Source: Spirochaetota bacterium (GTDB lineage Bacteria; Spirochaetota; UBA4802; UBA5550). From it: a DNA stretch of 64,000 bases. A program made the position numbers and the translations under genes. Location of the stretch: NCBI GenBank assembly GCA_035403545.1, contig DAONFJ010000008.1:4384-68383 (forward strand), written 5' to 3'. This document shows positions 37,726 to 58,482 of this stretch, one piece after another; the first letter of the stretch is position 1, and the number at the start of each line of letters is the position of its first letter. The notes under the pieces are model-generated. The model was not told where the DNA came from and searched no databases. It saw nothing but the letters and a program-made list of their open reading frames with translations.

Positions 37726-40700
37726 TCACTCCTCCGGTGTAAATATAATATCTACTGCAGTTCCGTTATCTTTTTTAATTTTAAGCACTCCCCCGATCTG
37801 CTCCGCCAGGGCAGAAACCAGATTCAGTCCGAAACCGCCGGACATTGAAGATACAACGTCATCAGATACCCCCACTCCGTCATCTTTGATAGAAATACTT
37901 ACTTCATCATTAACCTTAGTAACAGTAATTACAATTTCCCCTTCTCTCCCCTGAGGAAAGGCATATTTGAAAGCATTGGTAATAAGCTCATTTATAATAA
38001 TTCCGAGAGGGAAAAGTATCTTGGTATCAAGCACAAAATCCGAAATATCCTTCCTGATCTTTACCAGCCCATGATTCTCAAAAATAACGAAAATCTCATC
38101 TATAAATTTTTCAAGATACTCTTTCACGGACATTCTGCGGTAATCTTCCGATCTGTAAAGTTTGTCATACATAATCATCATGCTCTGAACACGGTTCCGT
38201 GCGTCGTTAAGTGCTGTTACCGCAGCATTATTGTTTATTGATGACGCCTGGAGCATAAGAAGCCCGGAAATTGTATTCATGTTATTCTTTATTCTGTGAT
38301 GCACCTCGCTAAGAAGCATCTCCTTCTCCTTAAGAAGGGAATTTATCTTTTCAAAAGACTCTCTGCTCTCAGTAACATCCCGGTTGATTCCCCTTCTCCC
38401 TGCAAAAATTCCATCCTTATCATAAACTGCACGGCACGCATGATTGATCCACTTTACACTTCCGTCTTTCCTTGTTATTCTGAATTCAATTTCATTTGCC
38501 TGTGGAATCTCCTCAACTTCACTCCAGCTAAGACATGGACTTTCCGAATCCTCCTTAAAAACAATTCTGCCGAGCAGGAGCGGATCATTCATAAATTCAG
38601 TATTTGTATAACCTGTAATTCTTTCACATGCGGGTGAACAGTAAATCATTCTGCCATCAGTACCGACCCAGAACTCCCAGTCGTAAGTATAATCAGCCAC
38701 CGTTCTGTACTTTTCGAAACTGGCTTCGAGTTCCTTTCTTATCATTTTTTCTGAGAGAGCAATTGCTATATTGTCAGCAAGGTGCTCAATCAGATTTATA
38801 AGTTCCCCGGTAAACATCCCTGTTCTTTTATCATTCAGCTGTATCAGTCCGAAAGTATTATCACCTGTTCTGAGAGGTATAAGAGCTACGGATTCATAGC
38901 CCATACCGTTACATCTGTTCCTTGTATGCGCACGCCTGTCTTCATCTGTTGTCGTTCTCAGCAGATCTGTAGTGCAGTTTGACCAGAAGCTTCCATGTTC
39001 CGTGAAGAATGGTTTCGAAGGATCAAACCTTGCACTTATAATATTTCCGCACATGCACTCAACAACAGGATTACCTATATCGTCCCTGAGGAGCTGCCCC
39101 TTAATATCATAAGCGCAGAGTGAATTTTCCAGTTTTATAAATTCAGATGGAAAACCTTCAGCTTCAAGATACGGATAATCTTCGCCGTCCTTCATGCGTA
39201 TACCGGCAGCTTCACATCCGGACCATTTTTTCAGAAAAGTTATAACCATCTTCATAAGATCATGCAGATCACCGCTTGAATTAATTATACGCAGAAGATC
39301 CATTATTGCATTCTTCTCATGAGCAGCAGTTTCGCGCTCAGTTATATCCCTGCTGATTCCAAGCAGAGATGTAATTTTACCGTTTTTATATATAGGAGTT
39401 TTTAAAGTATCAAAATAACGGATCTCCCCTCTTATACAGGCTGTTTCATTTTCAACAACAACCTTTTCGCCTGAAAGCGCCCGAAAATCATCCGATTCAA
39501 AACCTCGGATTCCTTTTTTAATATTTCCCTTAACAAACTCTTCACCCCAGCCGCATTCAATATCGGTCTTCCCTATAAGGTTTTCCGGCCTGCTGTTTAA
39601 TCCCGATGCATAAACTTCGTTGCACATGACAAGTCTGAGACCGGTATCTTTAACGTAAATATAATCCGGAGATGAATTGATTATATTAAGCAGCATCTTC
39701 CGGCTCTCCTTCAGAGATGTCTCAGCTATTTTACGTTCGGTAATATCCGAGATAATGCTGTCATACTCGATGAGATTGTTATCATTGTCATAATGCGGCA
39801 CTGGCGTATTTCTCACCCATGAAACAGACCCGTCGCGGCATATAATCCTGTGTTCAACAGGATTAAAAATTGCCTTATTGATAATATCCGACGCGAACAG
39901 AATTACACGCCCTCTGTCATCTGGATATATTACCTTATACCATAGTTCGGGGTCAGATGTAAAATCTTCCGGAGTGTATCCGGTAATTGCCTCGCATCCC
40001 GGTCCATGGACAGTCTTCACCGGATTTTTTTTGTCTATATAAACTGTGTACACATAACCCACTACTGAATCAAAGAGGCGATTATATCTCTCATCCCTCT
40101 CCTTTAGAAGCTCTTCCGCTTTTTTACGGTCTGTAATATCCTCTAATATCGTCGCGAAAAAACCCTTCATAGTAGAATACGCTGTGACCTTAAACCACTT
40201 GTTCAGTCCGCGCGAATAGTTTTCAACAGAAATCTGCACGCCTGTAAACGCCACCCGGCCGTATTCCGGGATCCGGTAAGGTTCAATATCCGGCATAATC
40301 TCGGAAACTTTCCGCCCTGTTATAGCAGCAGCCTTTAAACCGGTATACTGTTCAAAAGCAGGATTAACCTCAAGAAAAATGTAATCAACGGGATTTCCCC
40401 GTTCATCAGCAACAATCTCATGCAGAGCGAATCCGTTTTTCATTCCTTCAAACAGCTCTTTGTATTTCTTATCTTTTTTTAACAGCTGTTTCTCGGTGAT
40501 TTTTTTTCCGGTAATATCCCTTGCTCCAAGAACTGATCCTGTACGGATTCCGGCCTCATCATAAATATTCCGTCCGGTAGCTTCGAACCACCGGTACGAA
40601 CCATCCTTTTTCCTTTGCCTGAATTCGACGTAACCTTCACCGGCAGAACAAATGCGCAGGATACCTTTAATATCTTCGTCCCTGGTTGACGGATGGGCAA

Positions 40701-42031: not shown

Positions 42032-45000
42032 TTATAATTCACTTTTAATATCTACAAGCCACTTTCTGATCATGTCATCAATATCCCTGCGCTTAACCGG
42101 TTTGGAAAGGTAATCATTCATCCCCGCTTCAACGCATTTTTCCCTGTCTCCTTCCATAGCATGAGCAGTAAGCGCAATTATTGTCACATCAGGATTAAGC
42201 ACTCCGGAGTCACCACTCCTGATATATTTTGCCGCTTCATATCCATCCATATCAGGCATCTGGCAGTCCATCAGCACCAGGTGATAATCATTTTTTTTCA
42301 ATGCTTCAATACAATCATATCCGTTAACGGCATAATCTGATTTATATCCGAGTTTGCTTAAAATTGCAGTTGCTACATGGCGGTTTGTTTCATTATCCTC
42401 AACCAGAAGTATCCGTATTGAATTACGGTTAAAATCCGCTTCAGCTACACGCGCGGTTCTTCGTTTTCTTTTTACAGTTTCCTTCTGCTTTTCAACCGGC
42501 ACTGTAAAATAGAATACCGATCCGATTCCCGGAGTACTCTCAAGCTCAATACTACCGCCCATAATTTCGGAAAGTTTTTTTGAAATTGCAAGGCCAAGGC
42601 CGGTTCCGCCGTACCTCCGCGTCATGGCGCTGTCAACCTGGGTAAATGGCATAAAGAGTTCCTTTATCTTCTCTTCATGAATACCGATGCCGGTATCCTG
42701 AATCTTAAACAGAAGAACCGCTTCGGAATCTGATTCATTCACAATAGAAATGCGGATTGAAACACTTCCCTGCTCGGTAAACTTAACCGCGTTATGGGTA
42801 AGATTTGTAACAATCTGCCTTAGACGGCCGGAGTCACCTTTCAGTAAAAGAGGTACATCCGCGCCGATCTCTGCTGAAAGTTTAATACTTTTTCTTTCTG
42901 CTTTAAGTGAAAGCAATTCAATAATACCATCAATAATATTTTTCAGGTTAAAATCATAGCTTTCAAGCTGAAATTTTTCAGATTCAATTTTTGACAGATC
43001 AAGAATTTCATTAATTATAGTTAGAAGGGTATCACTGCTCGAGCCTGCAATTTCAGCATATTTTCTCTGCATCGGTTCAAGCTCCGTATCAAGAAGAAGG
43101 CTCAGCATTCCGATCACACCATTTATCGGAGTCCTGATCTCATGGCTCATATTCGCAAGAAACTGGCTTTTTGCCATATTGGCAGACTCGGCCTGAAGCG
43201 CAAGTGAATTGGCCCTCTTTACCGAGTCTTCAAGCTGCCTGATAGTTTTGACCAATTCCTCTTCCGCTCTTTTGCGTGCGGTTATTTCCATCACTGAAAC
43301 AATTCCTGCGGGCTCTCCCTTGTACTGGATGGAACCCCCTTTTAGTGATACCCATTTTTCACTGCCCTGCTTTGATATAATTTTAAATTCATACGGCAGT
43401 GGAAAATTCTTTGAGGCCTGGCGCAACTCGGCTCTTTCCCGGACAATAGCCCTGGATTCAGGCACAACGAAATCCCAGTAATTCATCCGATATAACTCAT
43501 CTCTGGTATAACCGAATATTTCTTCACCCGAATGATTAGTGTATACCCAGCGGTTTCCCTGGTGTATCATAATTGCGGCAGGTGATGATTCTGTAAGATT
43601 TCTGAAAATCGATTCGCTCTCATGGAGTTTGTCTTCAAGAATTTTTCTTTCCGTAATATCATGTATAATAGAAAAAAGCACTTTCTTGGTTTTGATTGCA
43701 ATACCGGCGGAAAATACCTCTACCGTATGGATGTCGCCGTTTGAAAGCTTGTGGGGAAAAATAAAGTGATTCTTTTTATTGGTAAATACCAGGTTGAGGT
43801 CATTTTTAATCTGTTCGGGGGTAAGCATATTAATTTCTGTTATCTTCATACTTATCAGTTCGTCACGCGTGTAGCCGTAGAAATCAACTGCTGAATTATT
43901 GACATCAACGATCATCCCGTCAGCAGGATCTATGAGCATCATGACTGCGTTATGCTCATAGAACATTTTCCTGAAACGCTCTTCGCTCTCGCGGAGCACC
44001 TCCTCGGCCTCCTTCCGGTCAGTTATATCCAGGAGATGCACTACAGTAAAAACTTTTTTATGCGCATCCGCATAAATTGAAATTCTCACTTCACAAATTT
44101 TCTGGGCTCCATCCTTTCGTATAATAGCCAGCTCATAACCTGATACTACATCATCACCTTTCTGGCGGGAGTAGTATCTTTCTGTTACAGCTTCCCTCTC
44201 TTCTTTATTTATAAATTCATAAAACTTACGGCCGGTCATCTCTCCTGAACTATAACCGAATACTTCACATACTCCTTCATTGACAAATGAAATGACCGAT
44301 TTGTTATCGATAATCATTATTCCGCCGTGAGTATTTTCAACAATAGACCTGTAGCGCTCCTCGCTCGATATCAATGCGACATTAGTAGTGATCAGCTCTT
44401 CATTTGCAGTCTCCAGCTCTTCAAGTGTAGATTGAAACTCCTCATTTATACTTTCAAGTTCGCAGTTATACTGTTTCATGTCATCTTCAAACAGTTTTCT
44501 CTCTGTAATATCGAGCGCAGTGAATGTGACACCCTTCGCAGGATCATTGATGTTAACAGGAGTTGAACTTAAAATTATGTTAATATTTCTTCCGTCTTTA
44601 CACTGCCACACTGTTTCAACAGTACCGGTTCCCTTCTCCACTATCTGATTATATCTTGCCTCTTCGTCATACTCATAGAGTTCATCTGATGGATAAAACT
44701 TTCTTGAGCTTTGATTTAAAATTTCCTCTTTTGAATAACCTGTCATTTTGCATAAAGTATCATTCGCTTCAAGTATCACCCGGTTTCTAACAAGGCCTAT
44801 GCCGACAGGCGCTGCCCTGAAAATACTTTTTATAGCATCATCTTTTTCAATGAGAATATTTTCTGATCTTATCTGCTCGTTATACAGTACAGCAATAGAA
44901 AGCTGATCAGCCATCTGGCACGCAAAAGTTATTTCATCCGGCATCCATTTATGGGTTTTATCCACGTGCCCGAAAGATAAAATTCCGGCATTCCGGCCTG

Positions 45001-46165
45001 CTATCCTCACAGCAGGCATAAGCATTGAAGTTATATTCAGCGGATTAAAATAATTTTCAATATATACGTTACTTTCGGGATCATCAAAAAAATCTTCATT
45101 AGTTATATATCTTGATGAAGAAAAAGCTTTAAAATTCTTTTCATAAACAGCTCTTACAATTACCTGCCCGGATGAATGCTTTCCCGCGGATAATTCATAC
45201 AGATCAACACACCTGAGGTTATCACCAGTCTCATCGAAAAGCCAGATACCGACTCTCGCCGCCCCTGATGCTTCAGCAGCTTTTTCTGTTATTACCGGAG
45301 CAAGCTGCGGGATGTTCCCTGAAACAAGAAAATGCGAAGCGGATACTTCAGATATAGCATTCTGCTGCAGTTCATACCGGTCAAGCGCCCGGTTCATTAT
45401 ATCTTCAGCATTTTTTCGGTTTGTAATATCTGAAATTATTCCCGTAGCACCGTGGAATACACCATCTCTTATGTCCGGATTGATATTAACCCTGACCCAT
45501 ATGACTCTCCCCGAAGATGTGACAGCGCGGAAATCAGTCAACCCGACATCAATACCGTTTTTTATATCAGTAAAAACATTTACTGCATTTTCACGATCAT
45601 CATTATATGCGAACTCAATAAAATTTTTACTCTTAACGTCATCCTGTTTGTATCCTGCCACTTTTTCGACTGCAGGGCTTACATACAAAACCTCACCATT
45701 ACTGTTAATTTCAAAAATAATATCTTTTACATTTTCAACAAGGGCCTGATATCTCTTTTCTCTTTCAGCGATTATATTATTCGCACGCTGAAGTTCGAGT
45801 GCCATTTCAATGGAAGAGAGAAGGACAAAATCCCCCGAGTTTTTTAAAACATACCCGTATCTTGTAATTGACCTGACATTCTCAACTATATCTTTTTCAG
45901 AATGTGATGTTAAAAAAATAACCGGGATGTCTCTATCCGCGAGAATTATTCTGGCAGTTTCCGTTCCGTCGATACCATCGCCAAGATTAATATCAGTAAG
46001 AACCAGGTCAATATCATGGTTACTGCTTACAAGCTGTACGGCTTCCTCACCTGTTGAGGCGGCAATAACATCGTAACCGTTTCTTTTGAGCATGGCACAC
46101 TGGGCAAGAGAGGTGATCATTTCATCTTCAACGAGGAGTAACTTTTTCTTTTTGTCATCAGTCAT
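42032..46165 (-). CDS. Hybrid kinase REC-PAS-GAF-PAS-coiled coil-PAS-PAS-PAS-HisKA-HATPase-REC
   Basis: FLANMSHEIRTPING, DTGIG, GGTGLGLAI, terminal REC LMDCQMPDMDG. Confidence 0.92.
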   Translation of the reverse strand: MTDDKKKKLLLVEDEMITSLAQCAMLKRNGYDVIAASTGEEAVQLVSSNHDIDLVLTDINLGDGIDGTETARIILADRDIPVIFLTSHSEKDIVENVRSITRYGYVLKNSGDFVLLSSIEMALELQRANNIIAEREKRYQALVENVKDIIFEINSNGEVLYVSPAVEKVAGYKQDDVKSKNFIEFAYNDDRENAVNVFTDIKNGIDVGLTDFRAVTSSGRVIWVRVNINPDIRDGVFHGATGIISDITNRKNAEDIMNRALDRYELQQNAISEVSASHFLVSGNIPQLAPVITEKAAEASGAARVGIWLFDETGDNLRCVDLYELSAGKHSSGQVIVRAVYEKNFKAFSSSRYITNEDFFDDPESNVYIENYFNPLNITSMLMPAVRIAGRNAGILSFGHVDKTHKWMPDEITFACQMADQLSIAVLYNEQIRSENILIEKDDAIKSIFRAAPVGIGLVRNRVILEANDTLCKMTGYSKEEILNQSSRKFYPSDELYEYDEEARYNQIVEKGTGTVETVWQCKDGRNINIILSSTPVNINDPAKGVTFTALDITERKLFEDDMKQYNCELESINEEFQSTLEELETANEELITTNVALISSEERYRSIVENTHGGIMIIDNKSVISFVNEGVCEVFGYSSGEMTGRKFYEFINKEEREAVTERYYSRQKGDDVVSGYELAIIRKDGAQKICEVRISIYADAHKKVFTVVHLLDITDRKEAEEVLRESEERFRKMFYEHNAVMMLIDPADGMIVDVNNSAVDFYGYTRDELISMKITEINMLTPEQIKNDLNLVFTNKKNHFIFPHKLSNGDIHTVEVFSAGIAIKTKKVLFSIIHDITERKILEDKLHESESIFRNLTESSPAAIMIHQGNRWVYTNHSGEEIFGYTRDELYRMNYWDFVVPESRAIVRERAELRQASKNFPLPYEFKIISKQGSEKWVSLKGGSIQYKGEPAGIVSVMEITARKRAEEELVKTIRQLEDSVKRANSLALQAESANMAKSQFLANMSHEIRTPINGVIGMLSLLLDTELEPMQRKYAEIAGSSSDTLLTIINEILDLSKIESEKFQLESYDFNLKNIIDGIIELLSLKAERKSIKLSAEIGADVPLLLKGDSGRLRQIVTNLTHNAVKFTEQGSVSIRISIVNESDSEAVLLFKIQDTGIGIHEEKIKELFMPFTQVDSAMTRRYGGTGLGLAISKKLSEIMGGSIELESTPGIGSVFYFTVPVEKQKETVKRKRRTARVAEADFNRNSIRILLVEDNETNRHVATAILSKLGYKSDYAVNGYDCIEALKKNDYHLVLMDCQMPDMDGYEAAKYIRSGDSGVLNPDVTIIALTAHAMEGDREKCVEAGMNDYLSKPVKRRDIDDMIRKWLVDIKSEL

Positions 46166-46413: not shown

Positions 46414-46829
46414 TACTAAAACAGTTGGAGAATAAAATCCGGTTTTGAATACTGAATTAAATCAGCAACATGAACCTGATACCTCTACTATTATTATATG
46501 TAACCGGCGACAAAGCAGCCTCCTCTAAAATTTAGAGATCGCCCGGCTTAAGAAAACTACCGTAGACAATTAATTATGCGGGAATTAATAAACAGAAAAC
46601 TGGCTCAAAAATTTAATAAATTATACCATTCATATTCTTTCAAAGAAATACTGAAATTTTTATTTAACATATATTTTTAAAACAACCCGAATTACATAAT
46701 CGTTTATTTTGCACTAAAATATATGTTAAGGAACAGCATTGAAAATAAATTACTGATTATATTATTAATGGTATAAAGCGTGCATTACTAAAGATTAGAT
46801 GTTAATGATTGAAACTGAGAGGATATAGA

Positions 46830-47156
46830 ATGAGAATAAACATTGATGACGCAGCAAGAGAGTACATTCTGAAGAAAGGGGGAAATGTCAGAATCCTTAT
46901 ACAATCCTGCCATTCGGGCGGAGGCTGAGGCCCTGCACGGCAGGTAACAAGCCGTATCCCTGCAGTCTGCATGGGTAAACCAGTTGGAGCAATAGAAAAA
47001 TTATACGCAGAACATGAATGTGATGGAATTTCCGTATGGATTGATACGACCATCAACGATAAATGCGCGGAGGAAATAAGTATCGGTTACAAAAAAATCC
47101 TCTTTTTCGGGGAGCTCACTTTAAAAGGAATTTCTACTCAGGTTTGTGTCAGATAA
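46830..47156 (+). CDS. Probable small selenoprotein (HesB-like / CC-Se-motif type), 108 aa, Sec at codon 33 (TGA 46926-46928)
   Basis: RBS GAGAGGA and ATG 46830 give MRINIDDAAREYILKKGGNVRILIQSCHSGGG-TGA-GPARQVTSRIPAVC, in frame with the ORF-track fragment MGKPVGAIEK...VCVR. A stem-loop follows the TGA. Confidence 0.75.
46931..46975 (+). other. Candidate bacterial SECIS stem-loop
   Basis: Pairings CCC/GGG, TGCA/TGCA and GCAGG/CCTGC, or alternatively ACGGC-AGGTAACAA-GCCGT, beginning 3 nt after the in-frame TGA. Confidence 0.5.
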
Positions 47157-47261
47157 TCAGGTGAATATTTATATATCACACTTGTTAATCAGTCTTGACA
47201 CAATCAATGAGCAGAATATATTTTATCATCAGAAGGCACATCGTCACCAGGCAGGTCTTGA

Positions 47262-49367
47262 ATGAGGGTAAGGGATTTTCTCGTAAGCAGCAGAATTCAT
47301 TTTTTCAATCCGAAGGATACTATTAAAGAGGCATCATCGGTTTTCCACGACCTTAAAATTGATGCCTCACCTGTAGTGGATAAGGATGGAGCGCTTATAG
47401 GGCTCTTTACAAAATCGCATGTTTTCAAAGCGATTAAAAACGGTATGAGCATGGAAACTCCGCTGGACGAGCTTATGACAAAAAATGTTATAGCAGGACA
47501 CCCGGATGATGACGTTGAAGACAGGTTTTATTTCAAACATGGTTACCTTCCCGTTGTCGAAAACGGGATGGCGGTCGGAATAGTAGCAATACCGGACTTC
47601 GTGAGAACATTTCACGACTGGTATAAAATGACCCGCAACATTACTGACGCAATTATAAATTCATCGCGAAATCTCATCATAGCAATTGATACAGATGAAA
47701 GGATTACCCTGGTAAATAAATCAGCCGCCGAAACATTCGGCAGAGATGTTAATGAACTTTCAGGTTTAAAAATACATGAACTGCTCCCTATAGTAGAACT
47801 CGGAGCTGTTATGAAAAGCGGCGAGGTTCCTCCTGTAATAAAGGTTACCCTGAATGAAAGGGCATATATAAACAGGAGCTATCCCATCTGGTTCGAGGGA
47901 AAAATTATCGGTGCAGTGGCGGTCTTTCAGGACATACAGGATCTGGCGAATATTGTACTTGAACTCGGATCAGCCAGGGAATTGAACCGCGATCTTCAGG
48001 CAATAATTGAATCATCGTCTGACGGGATTTTTGTATGTGACGGCAATGCGAATGTTTTAAGAATAAACAAGGCATATCAGGAGATTACCGGACTTGATAC
48101 ATCCGGATTTTACGGCCGCAACATGAGAGACCTTGTGGCTGACGGCACATTTTCCCAGTCAACTACACTGCTGGTGCTTGAAAGAAATGAACCGGTAAAC
48201 CTGGTACAGAAGACAAGTACAGGGAAGTCTCTCCTTGCTTCAGGCGTGCCGGTGTATGATGAAAACGGAAAAATTTTCAGGGTAGTTTCCAGTGTCAGGG
48301 ATATTACCGAGCTGTACAACCTGGAGAACAAGCTGCAGGACACTGAAAAAATGACCGAGGAGTTCAGAAAAGAGCTTAACTATCTCAGAATAAGGGATGT
48401 TAAAAACATTGAAGGTATGATAATAAGCTCGGAAAAAATGAACAATATTGTAGATACAGCAATCCGCCTGGCAAAAGTTGACTCAACAATAATGGTAACC
48501 GGTGAATCAGGAACCGGAAAGGATCTTGTAGCCGGAATAATTCACAAATACAGTACAAGATCCGAAAAACCATTCATTAAAGTAAACTGCGGGGCAATCC
48601 CTCCTAACCTTATAGAATCTGAACTTTTCGGTTATGAAGAGGGTGCTTTTACCGGCGCCAAGAAAGGGGGCAAACCGGGATATTTTGAAATGGCAGACAA
48701 AGGCAGCCTGTTTCTCGATGAAATAGGAGAGCTTCCTTACGATCTGCAGGCAAAACTCCTCAGGGTACTTCAGCACAAAGAGCTTAACCGGGTTGGCGGG
48801 CAGAAGTTCAGAAGCATTGATGTAAGGATTATTGCCGCGACAAACAGGGACCTCCTGGATATGGTCAAAGAGAAAAAATTCCGTGAAGATCTGTACTACA
48901 GGCTTAATGTTGTTCCTCTGTTTATACCGCCCCTAAGGGAGAGACGGGAGGATATTCAGTTCCTTACTTCATTTTTTCTCAAGATATTTAATGACAGTTT
49001 TAGTATGAAGAAAAGGCTCTCACCGGACCTCGTGGATAAATTCGAAGAGTATTCCTGGCCGGGAAATATAAGGGAACTGAGAAACCTTGTGGAAAGGCTT
49101 GTCGTTATGTGCCCTGATGATATTATAACTATAAAGGATCTCCCCTCAACTATATGCTCAGAGCTTAAATGCCAGGAACCCGATAAAGGCATAGTGGTGA
49201 ATACTTTAATGCCGGTAATTGAAGCTCTTGAAATTGTCGAGAAGCAGCTTATAGAAAAAGCATATCAGCAGTATTCAACAACAAGACAAATGGCGCAGCA
49301 TCTGAAGATCAGTGCATCTTCAATCGTTAGAAAAGCGGCCAAATACGGAATAACTAAACGTCATTGA
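47262..49367 (+). CDS. sigma54-dependent enhancer-binding protein CBS-CBS-PAS-PAS-AAA-HTH
   Basis: GESGTGKD Walker A, ESELFGYEEGAFTGA, FLDEIGEL, REDLYYRLNV, WPGNIRELRN, C-terminal HTH. Confidence 0.95.
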   Translation: MRVRDFLVSSRIHFFNPKDTIKEASSVFHDLKIDASPVVDKDGALIGLFTKSHVFKAIKNGMSMETPLDELMTKNVIAGHPDDDVEDRFYFKHGYLPVVENGMAVGIVAIPDFVRTFHDWYKMTRNITDAIINSSRNLIIAIDTDERITLVNKSAAETFGRDVNELSGLKIHELLPIVELGAVMKSGEVPPVIKVTLNERAYINRSYPIWFEGKIIGAVAVFQDIQDLANIVLELGSARELNRDLQAIIESSSDGIFVCDGNANVLRINKAYQEITGLDTSGFYGRNMRDLVADGTFSQSTTLLVLERNEPVNLVQKTSTGKSLLASGVPVYDENGKIFRVVSSVRDITELYNLENKLQDTEKMTEEFRKELNYLRIRDVKNIEGMIISSEKMNNIVDTAIRLAKVDSTIMVTGESGTGKDLVAGIIHKYSTRSEKPFIKVNCGAIPPNLIESELFGYEEGAFTGAKKGGKPGYFEMADKGSLFLDEIGELPYDLQAKLLRVLQHKELNRVGGQKFRSIDVRIIAATNRDLLDMVKEKKFREDLYYRLNVVPLFIPPLRERREDIQFLTSFFLKIFNDSFSMKKRLSPDLVDKFEEYSWPGNIRELRNLVERLVVMCPDDIITIKDLPSTICSELKCQEPDKGIVVNTLMPVIEALEIVEKQLIEKAYQQYSTTRQMAQHLKISASSIVRKAAKYGITKRH

Positions 49368-49482: not shown

Positions 49483-49538
49483 TGTTTCAATATTGAAACA
49501 CTGTTTCAATATTGAAATTCTGTTTCAATATTGAAACA
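49483..49538. promoter_or_regulatory. Three tandem 18-bp palindromes with a 19-bp period: candidate upstream activator sequences
   Basis: TGTTTCAATATTGAAACA at 49483 and 49521 (perfect); TGTTTCAATATTGAAATT at 49502. Confidence 0.75.
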
Positions 49539-49720
49539 GAAACAAAAAAAACTAGCCACATTCTGATTAACTGTTTTACTATTCGGGAAGAAACCTCAAT
49601 TAAACCGCAAAGAATTATTTTTAATGCTGATAAGCAGCAATTTCAAATCAAACTGATACTAAACAAAACAGATTGATCAATCAATACAGATATGCTGATT
49701 CTTTTAGTATTATAACCTCC

Positions 49721-49738
49721 TGTTTCATAACTGAAACA
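49721..49738. promoter_or_regulatory. Fourth TGTTTCA-N4-TGAAACA site
   Basis: TGTTTCA-TAAC-TGAAACA. Confidence 0.7.
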
Positions 49739-50022: not shown

Positions 50023-50037
50023 TGGCACGCAACTTGC
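50023..50037 (+). promoter_or_regulatory. sigma54 (-24/-12) promoter of the abfD operon
   Basis: TGGCACG-CAAC-TTGC matches the consensus, 57 nt before the abfD ATG and downstream of a GAFTGA activator gene. Confidence 0.9.
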
Positions 50038-50094
50038 GTTATAGAGATGTATGCAACTTTAAAAATTTGATTAAAAAATTCGGAGGAATTATAA

Positions 50095-51537
50095 ATGAAA
50101 ACAGGAAAAGAATACGAAGATAGTTTGAGAAAGCTTAAACTCAAAGTTTATCTCTTTGGAAAAAAAGTTGAGAATGTCGTTGATGACCCGATCATCCGCC
50201 CTTCCATGAATGCCGTTAAACTGACTTATGAGCTGGCACAACTGCCGGAATATGAGGATTTGCTTACAGCAACCTCTCACATATCAGGCAAGAAGATAAA
50301 CAGATTTACCAATATTCACCAGAGTGCTGCTGACCTTGTAAAGAAAACAAAGATGGAAAGGCTTCTCGGATCTCAGACTGGATGTTGCTTTCAGAGATGT
50401 GTCGGCATGGACGCAATGAACGCTTTATCAATTACAACTTTCAATATTGATAAAAAATATGGAACTGAATACAACAAACGTTTTCTGAAATATCTTTCTT
50501 TTGTTCAGGAAGAAGACCTTGTATGCGACGGAGCAATGACAGACCCTAAAGGTGACAGGAACCTCGCGCCAAACCAGCAGGCAGACCCTGATATGTTCCT
50601 CCATGTTGTAGAAGAAAAAGCTGACGGTATAGTTGTAACCGGAGCTAAAGCTCACCAGACCGGAGCTGTAAACTCACATGAAATTATTGTAATGCCGACA
50701 CAGGCTATGAAAGAGGAAGACAAGGACTACGCTATTTCATTCGCGCTTCCATCAGACGCAGAAGGCATAACCTACATATACGGCCGTCAGTCATGTGATA
50801 CACGTAAGCTTGAGAAGGGAACAATCGACAGAGGAAACCAGATTTTCGGCGGACATGAAGCTCTTGTTGTTTTCGATAAAGTTTTTGTACCATGGGACAG
50901 AGTCTTCATGTACAAAGAGTACGATTTCGCGGGAGAACTTGTTGAAAACTTCGCATCATATCACAGACAGAGCTATGCCTGTAAAGTAGGAGTCGGCGAC
51001 GTACTTATCGGCGCGACACAGGTTGCGGCAAATTATAACGGCGCAGAGAAAGCGTCTCATGTTAAAGACAAAATTATTGAAATGAACCATCTGAATGAAA
51101 CACTCTTCTGCGGATCACTTGCATGCGCGGGCGAGGGAAGCAAACAGCCTTCAGGCACATATCTTGTAAACATACTCCTTGCCAATGTATGCAAGCAGAA
51201 CGTAACCAGATATCCATATGAGATAGCAAGACTTGCACAGGATATCGCCGGCGGACTCATGGTAACCATGCCGTCTGAAGATGACCTGAATTCACCTGAA
51301 ATAGGACAGTATGTTAAAAAGTATTTCAGAGGAAGAGCAGACGTGACAACTGAAAACAGAATGAGAATACTCAGGCTTATTGAAAATATCACACTTGGTT
51401 CTGCAGCAGTTGGTTACCTTACAGAGTCTATGCACGGTGCAGGATCACCGCAGGCGCAGAGAATTATGATCGCACGCCAGGTGAACATGGCCGAGAAGAT
51501 GAAAACAGCAAAAAAATTAAGCGGAATTGTTGAGTAA
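50095..51537 (+). CDS. abfD: 4-hydroxybutyryl-CoA dehydratase / vinylacetyl-CoA delta-isomerase
   Basis: CFQRCVGMDA, DGAMTDPKGDR, GAKAHQTG, YHRQSYACK (Fe-S Cys/His ligands), ESMHGAGSPQAQR. Confidence 0.93.
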   Translation: MKTGKEYEDSLRKLKLKVYLFGKKVENVVDDPIIRPSMNAVKLTYELAQLPEYEDLLTATSHISGKKINRFTNIHQSAADLVKKTKMERLLGSQTGCCFQRCVGMDAMNALSITTFNIDKKYGTEYNKRFLKYLSFVQEEDLVCDGAMTDPKGDRNLAPNQQADPDMFLHVVEEKADGIVVTGAKAHQTGAVNSHEIIVMPTQAMKEEDKDYAISFALPSDAEGITYIYGRQSCDTRKLEKGTIDRGNQIFGGHEALVVFDKVFVPWDRVFMYKEYDFAGELVENFASYHRQSYACKVGVGDVLIGATQVAANYNGAEKASHVKDKIIEMNHLNETLFCGSLACAGEGSKQPSGTYLVNILLANVCKQNVTRYPYEIARLAQDIAGGLMVTMPSEDDLNSPEIGQYVKKYFRGRADVTTENRMRILRLIENITLGSAAVGYLTESMHGAGSPQAQRIMIARQVNMAEKMKTAKKLSGIVE

Positions 51538-51544
51538 AGAATCA

Positions 51545-51811
51545 TTGAAGATAGGCATTAAATTCTGCGGAGGCTGCAACCCGTTATTTGACAGGATTGC
51601 AGCCTCGCGAAGAATCAAAGATGAGTTAAGGGAGAAAGCGGAATTTGTTTCTTATGATGATCCGGAAGCTGATATTATACTGGTTTTCATGGGATGCAGC
51701 GCGGCATGCGCTGAAATAAGCGGATTCAGCATGGAAAAAGCAAAAATTATTAACAGTGATTCAGATGCCGATTCTTTCATAATTGAAGTAAAAGGGACTG
51801 CGGGACGGTAA
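51545..51811 (+). CDS. Small four-cysteine protein (KFCGGCNP...MGCSAAC); TTG 51545 likely, 51527 alternative
   Basis: Lies between abfD and cat2; CGGC and GCxxAC motifs. Confidence 0.8.
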   Translation: MKIGIKFCGGCNPLFDRIAASRRIKDELREKAEFVSYDDPEADIILVFMGCSAACAEISGFSMEKAKIINSDSDADSFIIEVKGTAGR

Positions 51812-51852: not shown

Positions 51853-53154
51853 ATGGACTGGAAAGATATTTATAAAAGCAGAGTAGTTACAGCAGATGAA
51901 GCTGTTAAAAAGATAAAGTCAGGGGATAGAGTTGTATTCGGCCATGCTGCGGGAGAACCTAAGGCGCTGGTTGATGCAATGGTAAGAAACGCCTCCTCAT
52001 ATAAAAATGTTGAGATCGTACACATGGTTGCCATGGGAAAAGGGGAATACTGCAATCCGGAATATGCCGGGAATTTTACACACAATGCCCTGTTCGCAGG
52101 CGGGCCCACAAGAAAAGCGATACATGAAGGGCGTGCATTATTTACACCATGTCATTTCAGCAAAATACCTTCATTATTCACGGAGAAGATTCTTCCTGTA
52201 GATGTAATGCTGATGATGCTTTCTCAGCCGGATGAACATGGATACTGTTCTTACGGTGTCTCTGTCGACTATACAAAACCTGCGGCTGAAAGCGCAAAAC
52301 TTGTAATAGCTGAAGTCACACCCCATATGCCGAGAACATTCGGGGAATCCGTTATACATATATCTGAAATCGACTGCATAGTTGAAACTGATTCAAAACC
52401 GGCAGTGCTCAACTCTCCGGAACTTTCAGCTAATGATGAAAAAATCGGCCGCAATATAGCTGAACTTATCAGGGACGGCGACTGCCTGCAGCTCGGTATC
52501 GGAGCGGTACCTGATGCCATCCTTAATTTTCTTACAGACAAGAAGGATCTCGGTATACACAGCGAAATGATTTCTGACGGAGTTGTCAACCTGGTGGAAA
52601 AAGGGATAATCAACTGTTCAAAGAAAAATTTTCACCATGGAAGGATAGTTGTAACATTTCTTATGGGAACAGAAAAGCTTTATAAATTCGTAAACAATAA
52701 TCCGTTAGTCGAAATGTTTCCTGTGAATTACGTAAACAATCCGGCGATAGTTGCGAGGAATGACAATATGGTTTCAGTGAATTCCGCACTTCAGGTCGAT
52801 TTTACCGGACAGGTTGTTTCAGATACTATCGGCTACAAACAGTACAGCGGTACAGGCGGACAGCTTGACTTCGTAAGAGGAGCCGCATGGTCAAACGGCG
52901 GAAGATCAATCCTGGCATTCAGTTCAACTGCGTCAGGAGGAAAACTTTCCCGGATAGTACCTCATATAGATGAAGGTGCTTCAGTGACAACTCCCAGGAC
53001 TGATACCCATTATATAGTTACAGAATACGGTATTGCCGACCTGAGGGGAAAATCCGTGGTAGAACGCGGTAAAGCATTAATAAAGATAGCTCATCCCGAT
53101 TTCAGGGAAGAGCTGGCAAAGAGTTTCTTTGAAATTTACAGGAAGGCCATATAG
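51853..53154 (+). CDS. cat2: 4-hydroxybutyrate CoA-transferase (acetyl-CoA hydrolase/transferase family I)
   Basis: LQLGIGAVPDA, GIHSEMISDG, SGTGGQLDFVRGA, VTEYGIADLRG; next to abfD. Confidence 0.85.
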   Translation: MDWKDIYKSRVVTADEAVKKIKSGDRVVFGHAAGEPKALVDAMVRNASSYKNVEIVHMVAMGKGEYCNPEYAGNFTHNALFAGGPTRKAIHEGRALFTPCHFSKIPSLFTEKILPVDVMLMMLSQPDEHGYCSYGVSVDYTKPAAESAKLVIAEVTPHMPRTFGESVIHISEIDCIVETDSKPAVLNSPELSANDEKIGRNIAELIRDGDCLQLGIGAVPDAILNFLTDKKDLGIHSEMISDGVVNLVEKGIINCSKKNFHHGRIVVTFLMGTEKLYKFVNNNPLVEMFPVNYVNNPAIVARNDNMVSVNSALQVDFTGQVVSDTIGYKQYSGTGGQLDFVRGAAWSNGGRSILAFSSTASGGKLSRIVPHIDEGASVTTPRTDTHYIVTEYGIADLRGKSVVERGKALIKIAHPDFREELAKSFFEIYRKAI

Positions 53155-53300: not shown

Positions 53301-54749
53301 ATGGGAATCAGAAGAATCAGGGAGTACGGCAAAATTCAGCCAGGCATCCCAATGGGTCCATTAACACTCAGGCTTCCATTTATTCACTACAGGTTTGAGA
53401 TTGCAGATTACCTGCAGGGCCTTCTTATGTGTACTGTATGTCTCTCCATTATACCGATTCTAACCGGTAAACTGGGGATGTCATTCGAAGTCGCACTTGC
53501 GATCGTTATACTTAACGGTACACTGTATCTGGCTCATGTAACATTCGGCGATCCGGTAGTCCCCGGATGGGTTACACCTGCTATTCCGCTTCTTGTTGCC
53601 TATTGCGAAACTTTCGCACCAGGTGCAGAGCGGATGCAGGCTCTTATTGCTTTTCAGTTGATGTTTGGTATTTTCTGTGTACTCCTTGGAGTTACAGGAG
53701 TAGCCAAAAAATTTATCGGGCTCATACCGAACGCAGTGCAGTCAGCTGTTCTTCTCGGCGCAGGTTTTGCCGCGATAATTATGATTTTTACACCAGGAAA
53801 AGGACTTAAAAGTTTCGACGCAAATCCATGGACAATTACAATATGTGTCGGTTTAGCGTTTTATCTTCTCTTTTCTGAAAGCTTTAAAATTTTCAAGAAA
53901 AAGCACAAATGGGCATATTACCTTGGAAATCTCGGTATGATGCCGGCTCTTCTTCTTGCAATATTCGTCGGCCCGCTCGTTGGTGAACTTTCATGGCCGG
54001 ATTATGCAGGAGTTACAATATTTTCAAGACCTGACTTTACTACTCTATGGCGTGATTTCACAATACTTGGAAACATACCATTTCCGAGCGTTAAAATGTT
54101 TTTAAGTTCCATTCCGATGGTATTAAGCGCATACATAGTAATATTTGGTGACGTTCTCCAGACTCAGGCACTCCTTGAAGATGCGCAGAAATACAGACCT
54201 GATGAAGATGTTGACTATAATCCGAACAGATCACACATCATTTTCGGTGGAAGAAATATTTTCATGAGTATATTCGGTCCTGACGTTTCTATGTGCGGCC
54301 CTCTATGGGCGGCAATGCAGGTTGTTGTATCTGACCGTTACAAAAACGGCCCTGCTGCAATGGAATCTATCAACTCAGGTGCAGGTTCCTTCAGATGGGG
54401 AACATGGACAGGATATTTCATTGCCCCTATTGTTGCATCAGTTAAACCTATACTCGGAGTAGGGCTTGCTTCTACAATGATGATTCAGGGTTATGTAAGC
54501 GTACGTGTCGGTGTAATGAAATCCAGAGGCTTCAATGACCTTGGGATAGCAGGTGTTGCCGGCGCGATCCTTGCAACAAGAGGAGCAGCATGGGGACTTG
54601 CAGCAGCAATTCTACTTGTAGTTATGCAGTATGCGGGAAGTAAGTGGAAAATGTCTTATACACCTGAAGAAGCTGTATTTCCTCTTGATTCACCTGAAGT
54701 AATTGCAAAAATAGTTGAAGAACATATGAATGCTAATACTCAAAGATAA
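53301..54749 (+). CDS. Polytopic membrane protein, probable permease (DUF3360/NCS2-like)
   Basis: More than ten hydrophobic segments; LPFIHYRFE motif near the N-terminus; RBS AAGGAG. The family is assigned from memory of the motif. Confidence 0.7.
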   Translation: MGIRRIREYGKIQPGIPMGPLTLRLPFIHYRFEIADYLQGLLMCTVCLSIIPILTGKLGMSFEVALAIVILNGTLYLAHVTFGDPVVPGWVTPAIPLLVAYCETFAPGAERMQALIAFQLMFGIFCVLLGVTGVAKKFIGLIPNAVQSAVLLGAGFAAIIMIFTPGKGLKSFDANPWTITICVGLAFYLLFSESFKIFKKKHKWAYYLGNLGMMPALLLAIFVGPLVGELSWPDYAGVTIFSRPDFTTLWRDFTILGNIPFPSVKMFLSSIPMVLSAYIVIFGDVLQTQALLEDAQKYRPDEDVDYNPNRSHIIFGGRNIFMSIFGPDVSMCGPLWAAMQVVVSDRYKNGPAAMESINSGAGSFRWGTWTGYFIAPIVASVKPILGVGLASTMMIQGYVSVRVGVMKSRGFNDLGIAGVAGAILATRGAAWGLAAAILLVVMQYAGSKWKMSYTPEEAVFPLDSPEVIAKIVEEHMNANTQR

Positions 54750-56098: not shown

Positions 56099-56451
56099 AT
56101 AATTTAGTATTTTTTAATTTTATTTAACACTCTTTCGGAATATTGAGTATATTGTTACATAATAAAATTTATTCTTATTACGCGTAAGCTGATAACAGGT
56201 AAATTTTCGGATGAAGCAGGATGATATTTTCTAAAAGCTTCTCCGGTAAAAATGAATTAGCTTATGATTCAAAAAAGTATGCTGTCTCCGTAAGGGATAA
56301 AATTGTCTGGCTGTATTGCTGCAGATATTAATTCTGTTTTGTTGAGTAAGTTTTAATGGAGCAGATTGTTTCACTTGTTCGCGATAGCCATGAACTAGTC
56401 ATTTCGGGAACCGCTAGGTATACAATTAATAATTTATACAGGAGTGAACAA

Positions 56452-58482
56452 ATGAAAGGGAACAAATCGATAAAAATAAAACTTATAACAAAACTCCTCC
56501 CGCTGGTAATACTTGGTATCGCCTTTGTTACGTTCATAGCATACAGATACACCAGCAGCTTTATTAAAGACGAGTACAGCAATCAGGTGCTAAAGACAAT
56601 CGTCGAATCATCAACGAATATAAATACATGGCTGAAAGGACGGCTTCTTGAAGTCGAAAGTATTGCCAGCACGCCGGCTGCAAAGAATATAAATAGAGAT
56701 TTTGCGTCTGCGGACAAGATGAATATAGACAGGTTTCTTTATCTTACAAAAAAATATCCCGAAGAATTTGCCGATATTTATGCCGCAAATTCAAATTATG
56801 AATATCATACAGTTAAGAATACTAACGGGGTTATCTCCATGTTTAAGGGAAGCCTCAAAGGGAGAGATTATTACGAGTCTATAATGTCGGGCGGGCCTGC
56901 ACAAATCACTCCTCCACTGATATCCAGAACAACCGGGCTCCCGACTGTTTTTATGGTTGCACCAATACTTGACGGCAATGGCAAACCCCAGGGTTTAGTC
57001 GGAGCCGGAATTCTTCTTAACTATGTCCAGGACGTGGTCAACAAACTCAAACTCGGAAACAGCGGTTACGGCGTGTGCCTTGCAAAAGACGGCCAGTATA
57101 TAGTATACCCGGACAAAACCAAAATTCTGAAAGAGAGCATTCTGCAGTCACAGGATGAGAACATGAAAGCTCTGGGGGAAAAAGTCCTTTCATCTGAATC
57201 CGGAATTCATAAATACACTTTTCAGGGAGTAAAAAAAATTGCATTTTCATCCCGTGTCGCGGTAAACGGCTGGCATATTGCGATAGTCGTTGATGAAAGT
57301 GAATTTTTTTCGCCTGTTACATCCATGCTTATACCTATCACGCTGATATCTTTTTTTATTGCACTGCTTATCGGTGTAATGATAATTTATCTCTCTACGA
57401 CAATTCTTGCCCCAATCAATGATATAGCAGAATTTGCAGACAAACTCTCTGCCGGAGACCTCACAGCAAGAATAGATGAAAAGCATACATTAAATGGAGA
57501 TGAAACAGGCTCACTGTCGGGAAAACTTAACCAGGCAAGTGAAAACCTGGGAAAAATGATTTCCGAGGTATTCAATTCAGCACAGCAGCTCTCCAATTCG
57601 GCAGAGCAGCTCGCAGAGACCAGTTCCAGAATGTCCGAATCCGCCCAGACCCAGGCCGCGGCCGTTGAAGAGGCATCGGCATCACTGGAGGAAATCTCCG
57701 GATCAATAGAAATGATCAACACCAATGCAGGAGAGCAGGCTAAGACTGCTGATGAAAGCTACCGGGCTATGGAAAAGCTTAAAACTGATAATGAAACTGT
57801 AACCGAATATGCGGGCAAAGCTCTTGAAGCTGCCAAAAATACTACCTACCAGGCAAGTACAGGGCAGACCCTTATGCAGAATACAATAGAAGGGATGAAC
57901 AGCATAAATGAAAGCACACAGAAAATTGCCGAGACGGTAAGCTTTATAAGCGACCTGTCTGACAAGGTTAACCTTCTTGCGTTAAACGCGTCGATAGAAG
58001 CTGCCAGGGCCGGTGACCACGGAAAAGGTTTCGCGGTAGTTGCAGAGGAGATATCAAAACTTGCAGACCAGACTGCATCGAGTACCAAAATTATCACGGA
58101 ATTTGTCAACGTCGGGCTTAAGGAAGTCGCCAGGGGAAGAGAATTCGTCGACGCCACGGGTGAAGCATTAAAAAGCATCATCGGCTATATAGCCCAGACC
58201 GAGGATATAGTCAGCCGGATTACAGGTTCTGCCGAGGGACAGGCTATTTCAACCAGAGAGGTGCTTGAACATACTAAAAAAGTTACAGAAATGTCTGAAA
58301 GTATTTCTGTATCGACTAACGAACAGATGATGACAAACCAGGAGATGGCTAAAACCGTTGAACAGATTAATCAGATTACACAGGCCACTGCAGCCGCGGC
58401 TGAAGAAATCGCCGCCAGTGCCGGAGAGATAAGTTCACGCGCGGAGACATTGAGAAATTATATGGAATTATTTAAAGTCTGA
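56452..58482 (+). CDS. Methyl-accepting chemotaxis protein with dCache periplasmic domain and HAMP; start corrected from 56356
   Basis: RBS AGGAG before ATG 56452; RDYY...[11 protein letters not shown] (Cache); GDETGSL (HAMP); [33 protein letters not shown]. Confidence 0.93.

Follow-up and report, generated by a model that had tools for sequence, protein, structure and literature searches.

A UGA-interrupted CC/Se-motif family selenoprotein gene in a spirochaete genome, with a predicted IscA/HesB-type fold and a possible link to 4-hydroxybutyryl-CoA dehydratase

Results

The gene and its reading frame

The stretch of DNA analyzed here, referred to as the window, comprises 64,000 nucleotides of a metagenome-assembled genome (MAG) of a Spirochaetota bacterium (assembly GCA_035403545.1, contig DAONFJ010000008.1, positions 4,384 to 68,383). 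Upstream of a gene cluster that includes abfD, the window carries a small gene of the CC/Se motif family that is interrupted by a single in-frame TGA. The comparative data presented below indicate that this is almost certainly one genuine gene for a selenocysteine (Sec) protein. Its basic features are as follows.

46830-47156, + strand: CC/Se-motif family selenoprotein gene, 108 amino acids (aa), with ATG at 46830 and stop TAA at 47154-47156, translated with TGA as Sec
46817-46823, + strand: ribosome-binding site GAGAGGA, read from the sequence, 6 nt before the ATG
46926-46928, + strand: UGA codon 33, read as Sec, the sole in-frame TGA of the gene

The product, with TGA as Sec, is MRINIDDAAREYILKKGGNVRILIQSCHSGGGUGPARQVTSRIPAVCMGKP...TQVCVR. 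A mechanical listing of open reading frames (ORFs) under translation table 11 yielded only a 61-aa ORF at 46971-47156 and another of 39 aa that stops at the TGA, and only 61-aa truncated calls of the gene were recovered by a word-indexed protein search. The called tail starts 141 nt downstream of the true ATG (46971 - 46830), and a purine-rich stretch lies ahead of the start codon in all orthologues. A preliminary description of this DNA, made from the letters alone, had proposed a hidden selenoprotein here, and the coordinates, the 141-nt offset and the C-H-S-G-G-G-[TGA]-G-P context that it gave match the sequence exactly. Gene callers split the gene in two, and this annotation error is systematic for the CC/Se family.

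Family membership, orthologues and selection

The window protein matched NCBIfam NF041239, "CC/Se motif family (seleno)protein", with 44.9 bits over residues 1-100 and model positions 1-90 of 91, the curated whole-protein cut-off being 40 bits, and PF28096 is precomputed on the 61-aa fragment and on relatives. A genome-wide family search recovered the locus at 41.6 bits with one TGA, as the one copy in the genome of the window, and the same search in 60 relatives found copies in seven, six with one TGA and one without. Additional orthologue loci were obtained from Spirochaetota MAGs and one Bacillota MAG by scanning named genomes. The TGA stands in the same alignment column in all 11 orthologues, which span two phyla (codon 33; codon 32 in the Bacillota copy), with amino acid identities to the window protein down to 34% and a length of 108 codons in ten of them and 109 in the other (L038). 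The ratio of nonsynonymous to synonymous differences (pN/pS) was 0.09-0.38 for the 32 codons upstream of the TGA and 0.17-0.54 downstream. By this estimate, the upstream part is under purifying selection at least as strong as that on the downstream part. PMC13188914 includes CC/Se among the selenoprotein families; the main text of PMC2398784, cited as the source of the family, mentions neither Moorella nor HesB, and neither a function nor a gene context for the family is given in the sources drawn on here.

To define the residue at the Sec column across the family, 1.8 billion representative proteins were searched with a family profile, which yielded 159 family clusters. The preliminary description had called for homologues with Cys or Sec aligned to codon 33, and 72 of the clusters have Cys at this column. 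A further 39 are fragments, either starting downstream of the column or stopping at it, two of which are 32-aa heads, and many other database entries are 55-70-aa tails. At least 20 clusters show Trp. Three such proteins were traced to their DNA, and each matches the database sequence only when TGA is translated as Trp (3/3), so these homologues are misread Sec codons. This finding matters because Trp at codon 33 had been named beforehand as a refutation of the selenoprotein. The Trp entries (P0004, P0024, P0039 and about 20 more cluster representatives) reflect the use of Trp for TGA by gene callers on short contigs. Any test of the kind "Cys, Sec or Trp?" that is built on database proteins would be misled by such entries.

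The Cys-form homologues are continuous proteins; in the Cys-form relative L023, GGC is aligned to the GGU of the Sec form. The residue following Sec is Gly in the window protein (U-G-P) and in L018, and Cys (U-C-P) in L030-L032 of the same genus, whereas in other Sec forms, the motif is U-S or U-A and a Cys stands at -3. A second, adjacent Cys is kept in most family members, the pair of the family being [Cys/Sec]-x(0-1)-Cys. Cys106 of the window protein is Asn or Tyr in L030-L032 and is kept in L018.

Conserved hairpins downstream of the UGA

An RNAalifold consensus of the 11 orthologues, aligned over 63 nt around the UGA, yielded two adjacent hairpins.

46937-46955, + strand: hairpin 1 of the RNAalifold consensus, ACGGC (46937-46941) paired with GCCGU (46951-46955) around the 9-nt loop AGGUAACAA
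46957-46976, + strand: hairpin 2, CCCUGC(A), loop GUC, (U)GCA, bulged U, GGG (46957-46963 paired with 46969-46976), conserved in 11/11 orthologues

Over both hairpins, 97% of the alignment cells were paired, compared with 31-44% when the partners were slid; the covariation score was reached by only one of 500 shuffles, and the energy of the two ranged from -6.3 to -10.8 kcal/mol across all orthologues. The loop of hairpin 1 begins 13 nt after the UGA, and all of its cells (100%) are paired. Its closing pair is AU in six sequences and CG in five with no mismatch, both sides lying at synonymous third codon positions (UCA...CGU vs UCC...CGG), and one inner G-C changes to G-U. Both Arg codons in this stem are always CGG or CGU, whereas 66% of Arg codons in the genome are AGA or AGG. 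Hairpin 2 has a bulged pyrimidine, a stem of 7-8 bp and a loop (A)GUC(U), in which GU is invariant at the apex and which lies 35-36 nt downstream of the UGA. The bacterial model of the Sec insertion sequence (SECIS) given in PMC13188914 requires a loop of 3-9 nt with G as its first or second nucleotide (mostly with G or U next), a stem of 4-16 bp, a spacing of 16-37 nt and a minimum free energy of -7.5 kcal/mol or lower. Hairpin 2 fits it in loop, stem and spacing and falls just short of the energy cut-off, with -7.3 kcal/mol for the window sequence and -6.9 to -9.7 among the orthologues. It is the best SECIS candidate and likely the one bound by SelB, and hairpin 1 may be an auxiliary or spacer structure.

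A stable stem-loop had been described as following the UGA immediately. Folded as a single sequence, the region downstream of the UGA did no better than shuffled sequences (z = 0.29), so the stability was not borne out, although the comparative analysis did place two conserved hairpins there. The hairpin from the single-sequence fold (GGCU/AGCC enclosing CCUGC/GCAGG) differs from the conserved hairpin and was rejected. At 46929-46976, the codons after the UGA (GGC CCU GCA) repeat the 5' arm of hairpin 2 (CCCUGCA), which is the case in the window and L018 only. This repeat permits an alternative long hairpin (about -18 kcal/mol), beginning 1-2 nt downstream of the UGA, that is not kept in the other orthologues.

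Sec machinery and genetic code

The genome was found to encode SelA (471 bits) and SelB (334 bits) by adjacent genes on contig C111, and SelD (374.8 bits; C89:2618-3721, + strand). The selD gene carries an in-frame TGA (…TGAGUAAKIGPE…, motif GAGU), with a hairpin about 12 nt after the UGA, and selD is thus itself a selenoprotein gene. TGA is otherwise an ordinary stop in this genome, where it ends 27.5% of the long ORFs. A second small selenoprotein, encoded at C126:707-1021 (- strand) with one in-frame TGA, is a canonical HesB-like protein (MAIKVTDNAK...NGFGUGGPRMG...GGSTC), its best model being TIGR01911 at 57 bits, below the cut-off of 66.35. Standard gene calling would probably truncate this gene, too. 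The TGA kept in 11 orthologues, the Cys homologues, the SECIS-like hairpins and the purifying selection upstream of the TGA uphold the hidden selenoprotein that had been proposed.

Predicted fold and remote homology

The AlphaFold2 model, built with the 11 orthologues, had a mean predicted local distance difference test score (pLDDT) of 83.5 and an alpha/beta fold, with Sec33 in the loop between beta2 and beta3. In a Foldseek search against PDB, ranks 1-9 were all of the SufA/IscA/HesB type (SufA 2D2A; IscA 1X0G, 1R94 and 1S98; HI1723, 2APN; AQ_1857, 1NWB; and 2P2E), with probabilities of 0.87-1.0 and E-values of 2e-4 to 2e-3, followed by a gap to an E-value of about 0.9. Sequence searches against PDB chains returned nothing meaningful, so that the relation to IscA/HesB is visible only by fold search and profile-profile comparison. 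With regard to the latter, hhalign of the 70-sequence family profile against the HesB-like selenoprotein of the same genome gave an E-value of 5e-5 and a probability of 67% over 89 columns, with Sec33 placed on Sec. The Sec position of the HesB-like selenoprotein is one that we take to be that of the first cluster-ligating Cys of A-type carriers (IscA Cys35). The window protein also aligned over its full length with PF01521 (Fe-S_biosyn), with 12.6 bits against a gathering threshold of 26.3; this was the sole recurrent Pfam family, matched by 7 of 70 family members at E <= 0.01 (best 6.2e-6), and UniRef names one family member "FeS cluster biogenesis domain-containing protein". TIGR01911 and NF038090 gave no match to the window protein at E <= 10. 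The similarity to HesB-like selenoproteins suggested in the preliminary description therefore holds as remote homology and not as membership in that family. On the strength of the model and the profile comparison, a fold and ancestry of the HesB/IscA type appear probable for the CC/Se protein.

Recurrent neighborhood of abfD

AbfD is 4-hydroxybutyryl-CoA dehydratase, a radical enzyme with an oxygen-labile [4Fe-4S] cluster and FAD. It is key to the fermentation of 4-aminobutyrate and 4-hydroxybutyrate and to archaeal CO2-fixation cycles, and it is notoriously oxygen-sensitive. In the window, the CC/Se gene precedes the activator gene of the abfD cluster, an order (CCSe, activator, abfD) that is kept only within the genus of the window. 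Synteny at the level of one genus would by itself make the link to AbfD weak, and members in other lineages change this. Five further members (L050 and L135-L138), which belong to two other subfamilies and are 21-28% identical to the window protein, the subfamilies also being 21-28% identical to one another, lie 0-7 kb from abfD in the following arrangements.

L050: abfD, nifU, AF_0334/abfT, 162 aa, CCSe, MCP
L135: activator, 470 aa, abfD, nifU, AF_0334, abfT, 200 aa, CCSe, thiolase, hbd, crt
L136 (Pelorhabdus rhamnosifermentans): activator, 469 aa, abfD, nifU, AF_0334, abfT, CCSe, MCP
L137 (Clostridium homopropionicum): CCSe, acp, caiC, luxE, luxC, activator, abfD, the layout of the XanR regulon set out in PMC6615313
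L138: 478 aa, CCSe, nifU, abfD, AF_0334, abfT, Fe-ADH

Genes of three divergent subfamilies in all are thus linked to abf clusters at four different positions relative to abfD, and genes for a NifU-like protein and for AF_0334 are usually present at the clusters that carry CC/Se members. The clusters of Pelorhabdus and the window have seven homologous genes in common. Since chance adjacency to abfD would be only of the order of 0.4% per lineage (our estimate, based on roughly 16 neighbor genes looked at for each locus and about 4000 genes per genome), the adjacency seen in 6 of about 11 informative lineages is, on this count of gene neighbors, far beyond chance. The co-occurrence of the genes points in the same direction, with abfD in 10/10 genomes having the Sec subfamily (P about 0.03 before correction for phylogeny), which is only weakly informative because 38 of 61 genomes of the bacterial family have abfD anyway.

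The abf cluster of the window

The features downstream of the selenoprotein gene are listed below.

47195-47222, + strand: sigma-70-like promoter, TTGACA-16 nt-TATATT, between the selenoprotein and activator genes (consensus scan, 11/12 positions)
47262-49367, + strand: sigma-54 enhancer-binding activator, CBS-PAS-AAA+-HTH (Pfam; 47% identical to the Pelorhabdus abf activator)
49483-49738, + strand: candidate activator-binding palindromes TGTTTCA-N4-TGAAACA, starting at 49483, 49502, 49521 and 49721 (pattern search; three exact, one with two mismatches)
50023-50038, + strand: sigma-54 promoter TGGCACGCAACTTGCG upstream of abfD (pattern search)
50095-51537, + strand: abfD (Pfam HpaB_N/HpaB)
51527-51811, + strand: AF_0334-like small four-Cys protein (31% identical to the PF27236 protein at the same position in L136)
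51853-53154, + strand: abfT, 4-hydroxybutyrate CoA-transferase (Pfam AcetylCoA_hydro)
53301-54749, + strand: 482-aa protein conserved in abf clusters (52% identical to the 469-aa Pelorhabdus gene; no Pfam or NCBIfam match)
56356-58482, + strand: dCache_1-HAMP-MCP chemoreceptor (Pfam; 36% identical to the Pelorhabdus counterpart)

Judging by the sigma-70-like promoter, the activator gene could be transcribed independently. In the rest of the 64-kb window, the palindrome (0-2 mismatches) was found only once, as a two-mismatch match at 39809. AF_0334 homologues (PF27236) stand at the same position in L018, L135, L136 and L138 and are fused to AbfT in L050; relatives of AF_0334 are present in 46 of 80 metagenomic abfD loci and are far more constant companions of AbfD than the CC/Se protein. 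The 482-aa protein, which might be a transporter, has copies of 72-85% identity in five of the metagenomic abfD loci (L053, L054, L060, L061 and L064). In the spirochaete and two loci of the Negativicutes type (L136:8613-10637 and L050:4359-6341), the abf cluster ends with a dCache_1-HAMP chemoreceptor, and the one of the window may sense 4-hydroxybutyrate or a related acid. On the other side of the selenoprotein gene, 660 bp upstream and divergent, a hybrid sensor kinase of 1377 aa is encoded at 42032-46165 (- strand); as read from the translation only, it has a receiver at each end, with several PAS domains, GAF and HisKA/HATPase between them.

Discussion

Proposed role of the CC/Se protein

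The present analysis suggests that the window carries a CC/Se selenoprotein with an IscA/HesB-like fold that serves as an accessory to AbfD, an explanation to which, as a whole, we assign a probability of about 60%. During synthesis, SelB would bind hairpin 2 and deliver Sec-tRNA at codon 33, whereas under selenium limitation, translation would stop after 32 residues. The mature protein would offer a selenolate on a flexible loop at the place where A-type carriers hold their cluster, with neighboring thiolates in most relatives, and, as an enzyme-specific accessory, it could hold and hand over, or re-insert, the oxygen-labile Fe-S cluster of AbfD by means of this selenolate/thiolate loop. A dedicated role in the delivery or repair of this cluster is proposed because the AbfD cluster is oxygen-labile and because the abf operons with CC/Se members usually also carry NifU-like and AF_0334 genes. 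Some functional tie to AbfD, judged from gene neighborhoods, has in our estimation slightly better than even odds. The carrier or repair mechanism itself is put forward only tentatively. The same holds for the idea that CC/Se proteins are an unrecognized, AbfD-dedicated maturation or repair factor, in which a diverged carrier of the IscA/HesB fold would act with the NifU-like and AF_0334 proteins of the operon and a selenolate would replace a cluster-binding thiolate in the spirochaete lineage; we consider it possible and far from established. The preliminary description had likewise connected the protein with AbfD in an Fe-S or redox role, a connection that gains from the five further members at abfD clusters, although the link is inferred and not universal.

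Several observations weigh against this explanation. With regard to the gene, tRNA-Sec (selC) was not found in the assembly of the window by Rfam RF01852 or ARAGORN, and of the Sec system that had been expected elsewhere in the genome, only selA, selB and selD were thus recovered. We judged the missing tRNA-Sec to be uninformative because the assembly, which is 79.6% complete and contains 23 tRNA genes, also has none for Ser, Cys, His, Ile or Asp; tRNA-Sec was detected at 70-73 bits in 7/7 gene-carrying relatives, three of them of the same genus. With regard to the fold, the Foldseek TM-scores were moderate (0.5-0.6), and the confidence of the model is lowest in the Sec-bearing loop (pLDDT about 58). 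The conserved C-terminal Cys-x-Cys is absent from the CC/Se family, in which only the loop position (Sec/Cys) is conserved, and the dyad's second Cys is missing from the window protein, which has U-G-P and not U-C-P.

With regard to the link to AbfD, the selenoprotein gene of the window lies outside the sigma-54 operon and not behind its promoter, and a search upstream of the gene for the activator palindrome or a sigma-54 promoter found none. None of the 80 metagenomic abfD loci (AbfD 74-89% identical, 877 kb in total, positive controls detected) carries a CC/Se family member; several family members occur in unrelated contexts, and one relative has a Cys-form gene without abfD. The orthologue in the Bacillota MAG is not linked to abfD, and in other spirochaete genera, the orthologue resides away from abfD at a locus composed of Yippee-like, CCSe, 300-aa and NUDIX genes. 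In the genome of the window, this Yippee-like/300-aa/NUDIX locus is present (C15:15009-17338), with a 323-bp gap that holds neither a gene remnant nor a decayed second copy. Because the ancestral locus is thus present and empty, the selenoprotein gene appears to have left it and moved to the abf cluster in the genus of the window.

Alternative explanations

The alternative that survives best is that the CC/Se protein is a thiol/selenol oxidoreductase and not a cluster carrier, which would keep the cluster ligands or flavin of AbfD in the active redox state or protect AbfD after exposure to oxygen, the redox couple being [Sec/Cys]-x(0-1)-Cys, or Sec33 with Cys27 or Cys47 in the window protein, cycling between selenol/thiol and selenenylsulfide. 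The exchange of Sec and Cys at one site is typical of redox-active residues, redox proteins presumably make up most of the uncharacterized bacterial selenoproteins (PMC13188914), and the adjacent second Cys, which most family members keep, would suit such a couple, as would the lack of the IscA-type C-terminal CxC ligands. Furthermore, most abf operons already have a NifU-like carrier, so that a second one may be redundant. However, the fold and the remote homology point to the Fe-S carrier superfamily and not to thioredoxin-like folds, and no vicinal selenenylsulfide is possible in the window protein, in which the adjacent Cys is missing. We therefore regard an oxidoreductase as unlikely, though worth keeping in mind.

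It would be quite improbable, in our view, that the CC/Se protein is a general-purpose small selenoprotein for the handling of metal, sulfur or selenium, with no specific relation to AbfD and with its abf position as a by-product of genome rearrangement. The unlinked orthologues in other spirochaete genera and the Bacillota MAG would be explained in this way, as would the 0/80 count and the lack of a shared regulatory site in the window, and the commonness of abfD in the bacterial family (38/61) makes the co-occurrence weak evidence. Such a rearrangement would nevertheless have to bring the gene of the window genus from its ancestral locus to, of all places, the abf cluster, and members of two other subfamilies lie within 7 kb of abfD at five loci with differing arrangements, against a chance of about 0.4% per genome.

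That the gene is not a selenoprotein gene at all, the TGA being a nonsense mutation (in a pseudogene or between two small ORFs) or being read as Trp or Cys by a changed code, is highly improbable; the 61-aa calls, the tRNA-Sec missing from this assembly and the database homologues with Trp would speak for it, and the pseudogene, split-ORF and recoded-TGA readings were rejected as contradicted by the comparative data, namely the TGA kept in 11 orthologues of two phyla with purifying selection on both sides, the tested Trp forms that are TGA codons, the use of TGA as the stop of 27.5% of long ORFs, the presence of selA, selB and a Sec-containing selD, and the continuous Cys-form homologues.

Significance

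If the proposed role as a cluster carrier for AbfD is correct, this protein would be a carrier with selenocysteine as a ligand of its Fe-S cluster and would provide a first function for an orphan selenoprotein family. The contributions of this study are the recurrent association with abfD, the homology to IscA/HesB, a two-hairpin SECIS with covariation and a warning on false Trp entries. The family thereby gains its first concrete and testable functional context, consisting of an IscA/HesB-type fold, Sec on the aligned ligand position and a recurrent abfD neighborhood, and a spirochaete lineage is added to the hosts of the family. The gene also corrects public collections, in which CC/Se proteins appear with a false Trp or cut down to fragments of 61 or 32 aa. 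A dedicated set of proteins for cluster handling would matter for understanding AbfD and for expressing it in other hosts.

Comparison with known systems

A sigma-54-controlled (XanR-type) abfD-nifU-hyp-ach operon has been described for Clostridium (PMC6615313), and the cluster of the window resembles such operons in the activator, the palindromic upstream sites, the sigma-54 promoter, abfD, the small Cys protein and the CoA-transferase. The window cluster differs in having no nifU and in the position of the CC/Se gene, which is upstream of the activator and outside the sigma-54 unit. The passage of PMC6615313 drawn on here does not mention a CC/Se-family gene, and the CC/Se member of C. homopropionicum adjoins the acp-caiC-luxEC operon of the XanR regulon.

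With respect to its own family (NF041239/PF28096), the window protein scores above the cut-off, belongs to the length class of about 90-115 aa and has Sec at the Cys/Sec column after GG, in a family in which Cys-form and Sec-form members coexist. It differs in having U-G-P in place of the usual U-C or C-C dyad, with a Cys 6 residues upstream of Sec, and in coming from a Spirochaetota MAG. The CC/Se family is already catalogued and its function is not; the window gene adds a spirochaete member, and because the selenoprotein family had been catalogued, the novelty of the gene as an object is modest.

The HesB-like selenoproteins (TIGR01911/NF038090, motif UxGP) are also small proteins for which an IscA/HesB fold is predicted, and their Sec likewise comes behind glycines in the loop that follows the second strand. 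The motif is GGGU-GP in the window protein and GFGU-GGP in the HesB-like protein, the U-G-P of the window protein being one residue shorter; the CC/Se family has no conserved C-terminal Cys, and its post-Sec segment SRQVTSRIPAV is family-specific. The carriers IscA, SufA and ErpA (PF01521; PDB 1R94, 1S98, 1X0G and 2D2A) are the best and only convincing structural matches, although the sequence similarity is at the edge of detection and the CC/Se family has an extra adjacent Cys instead of the C-terminal CxC. The order of secondary structures is the same in these carriers and in the CC/Se model, and the Sec/Cys of the CC/Se family is predicted to sit at the position of their first cluster ligand.

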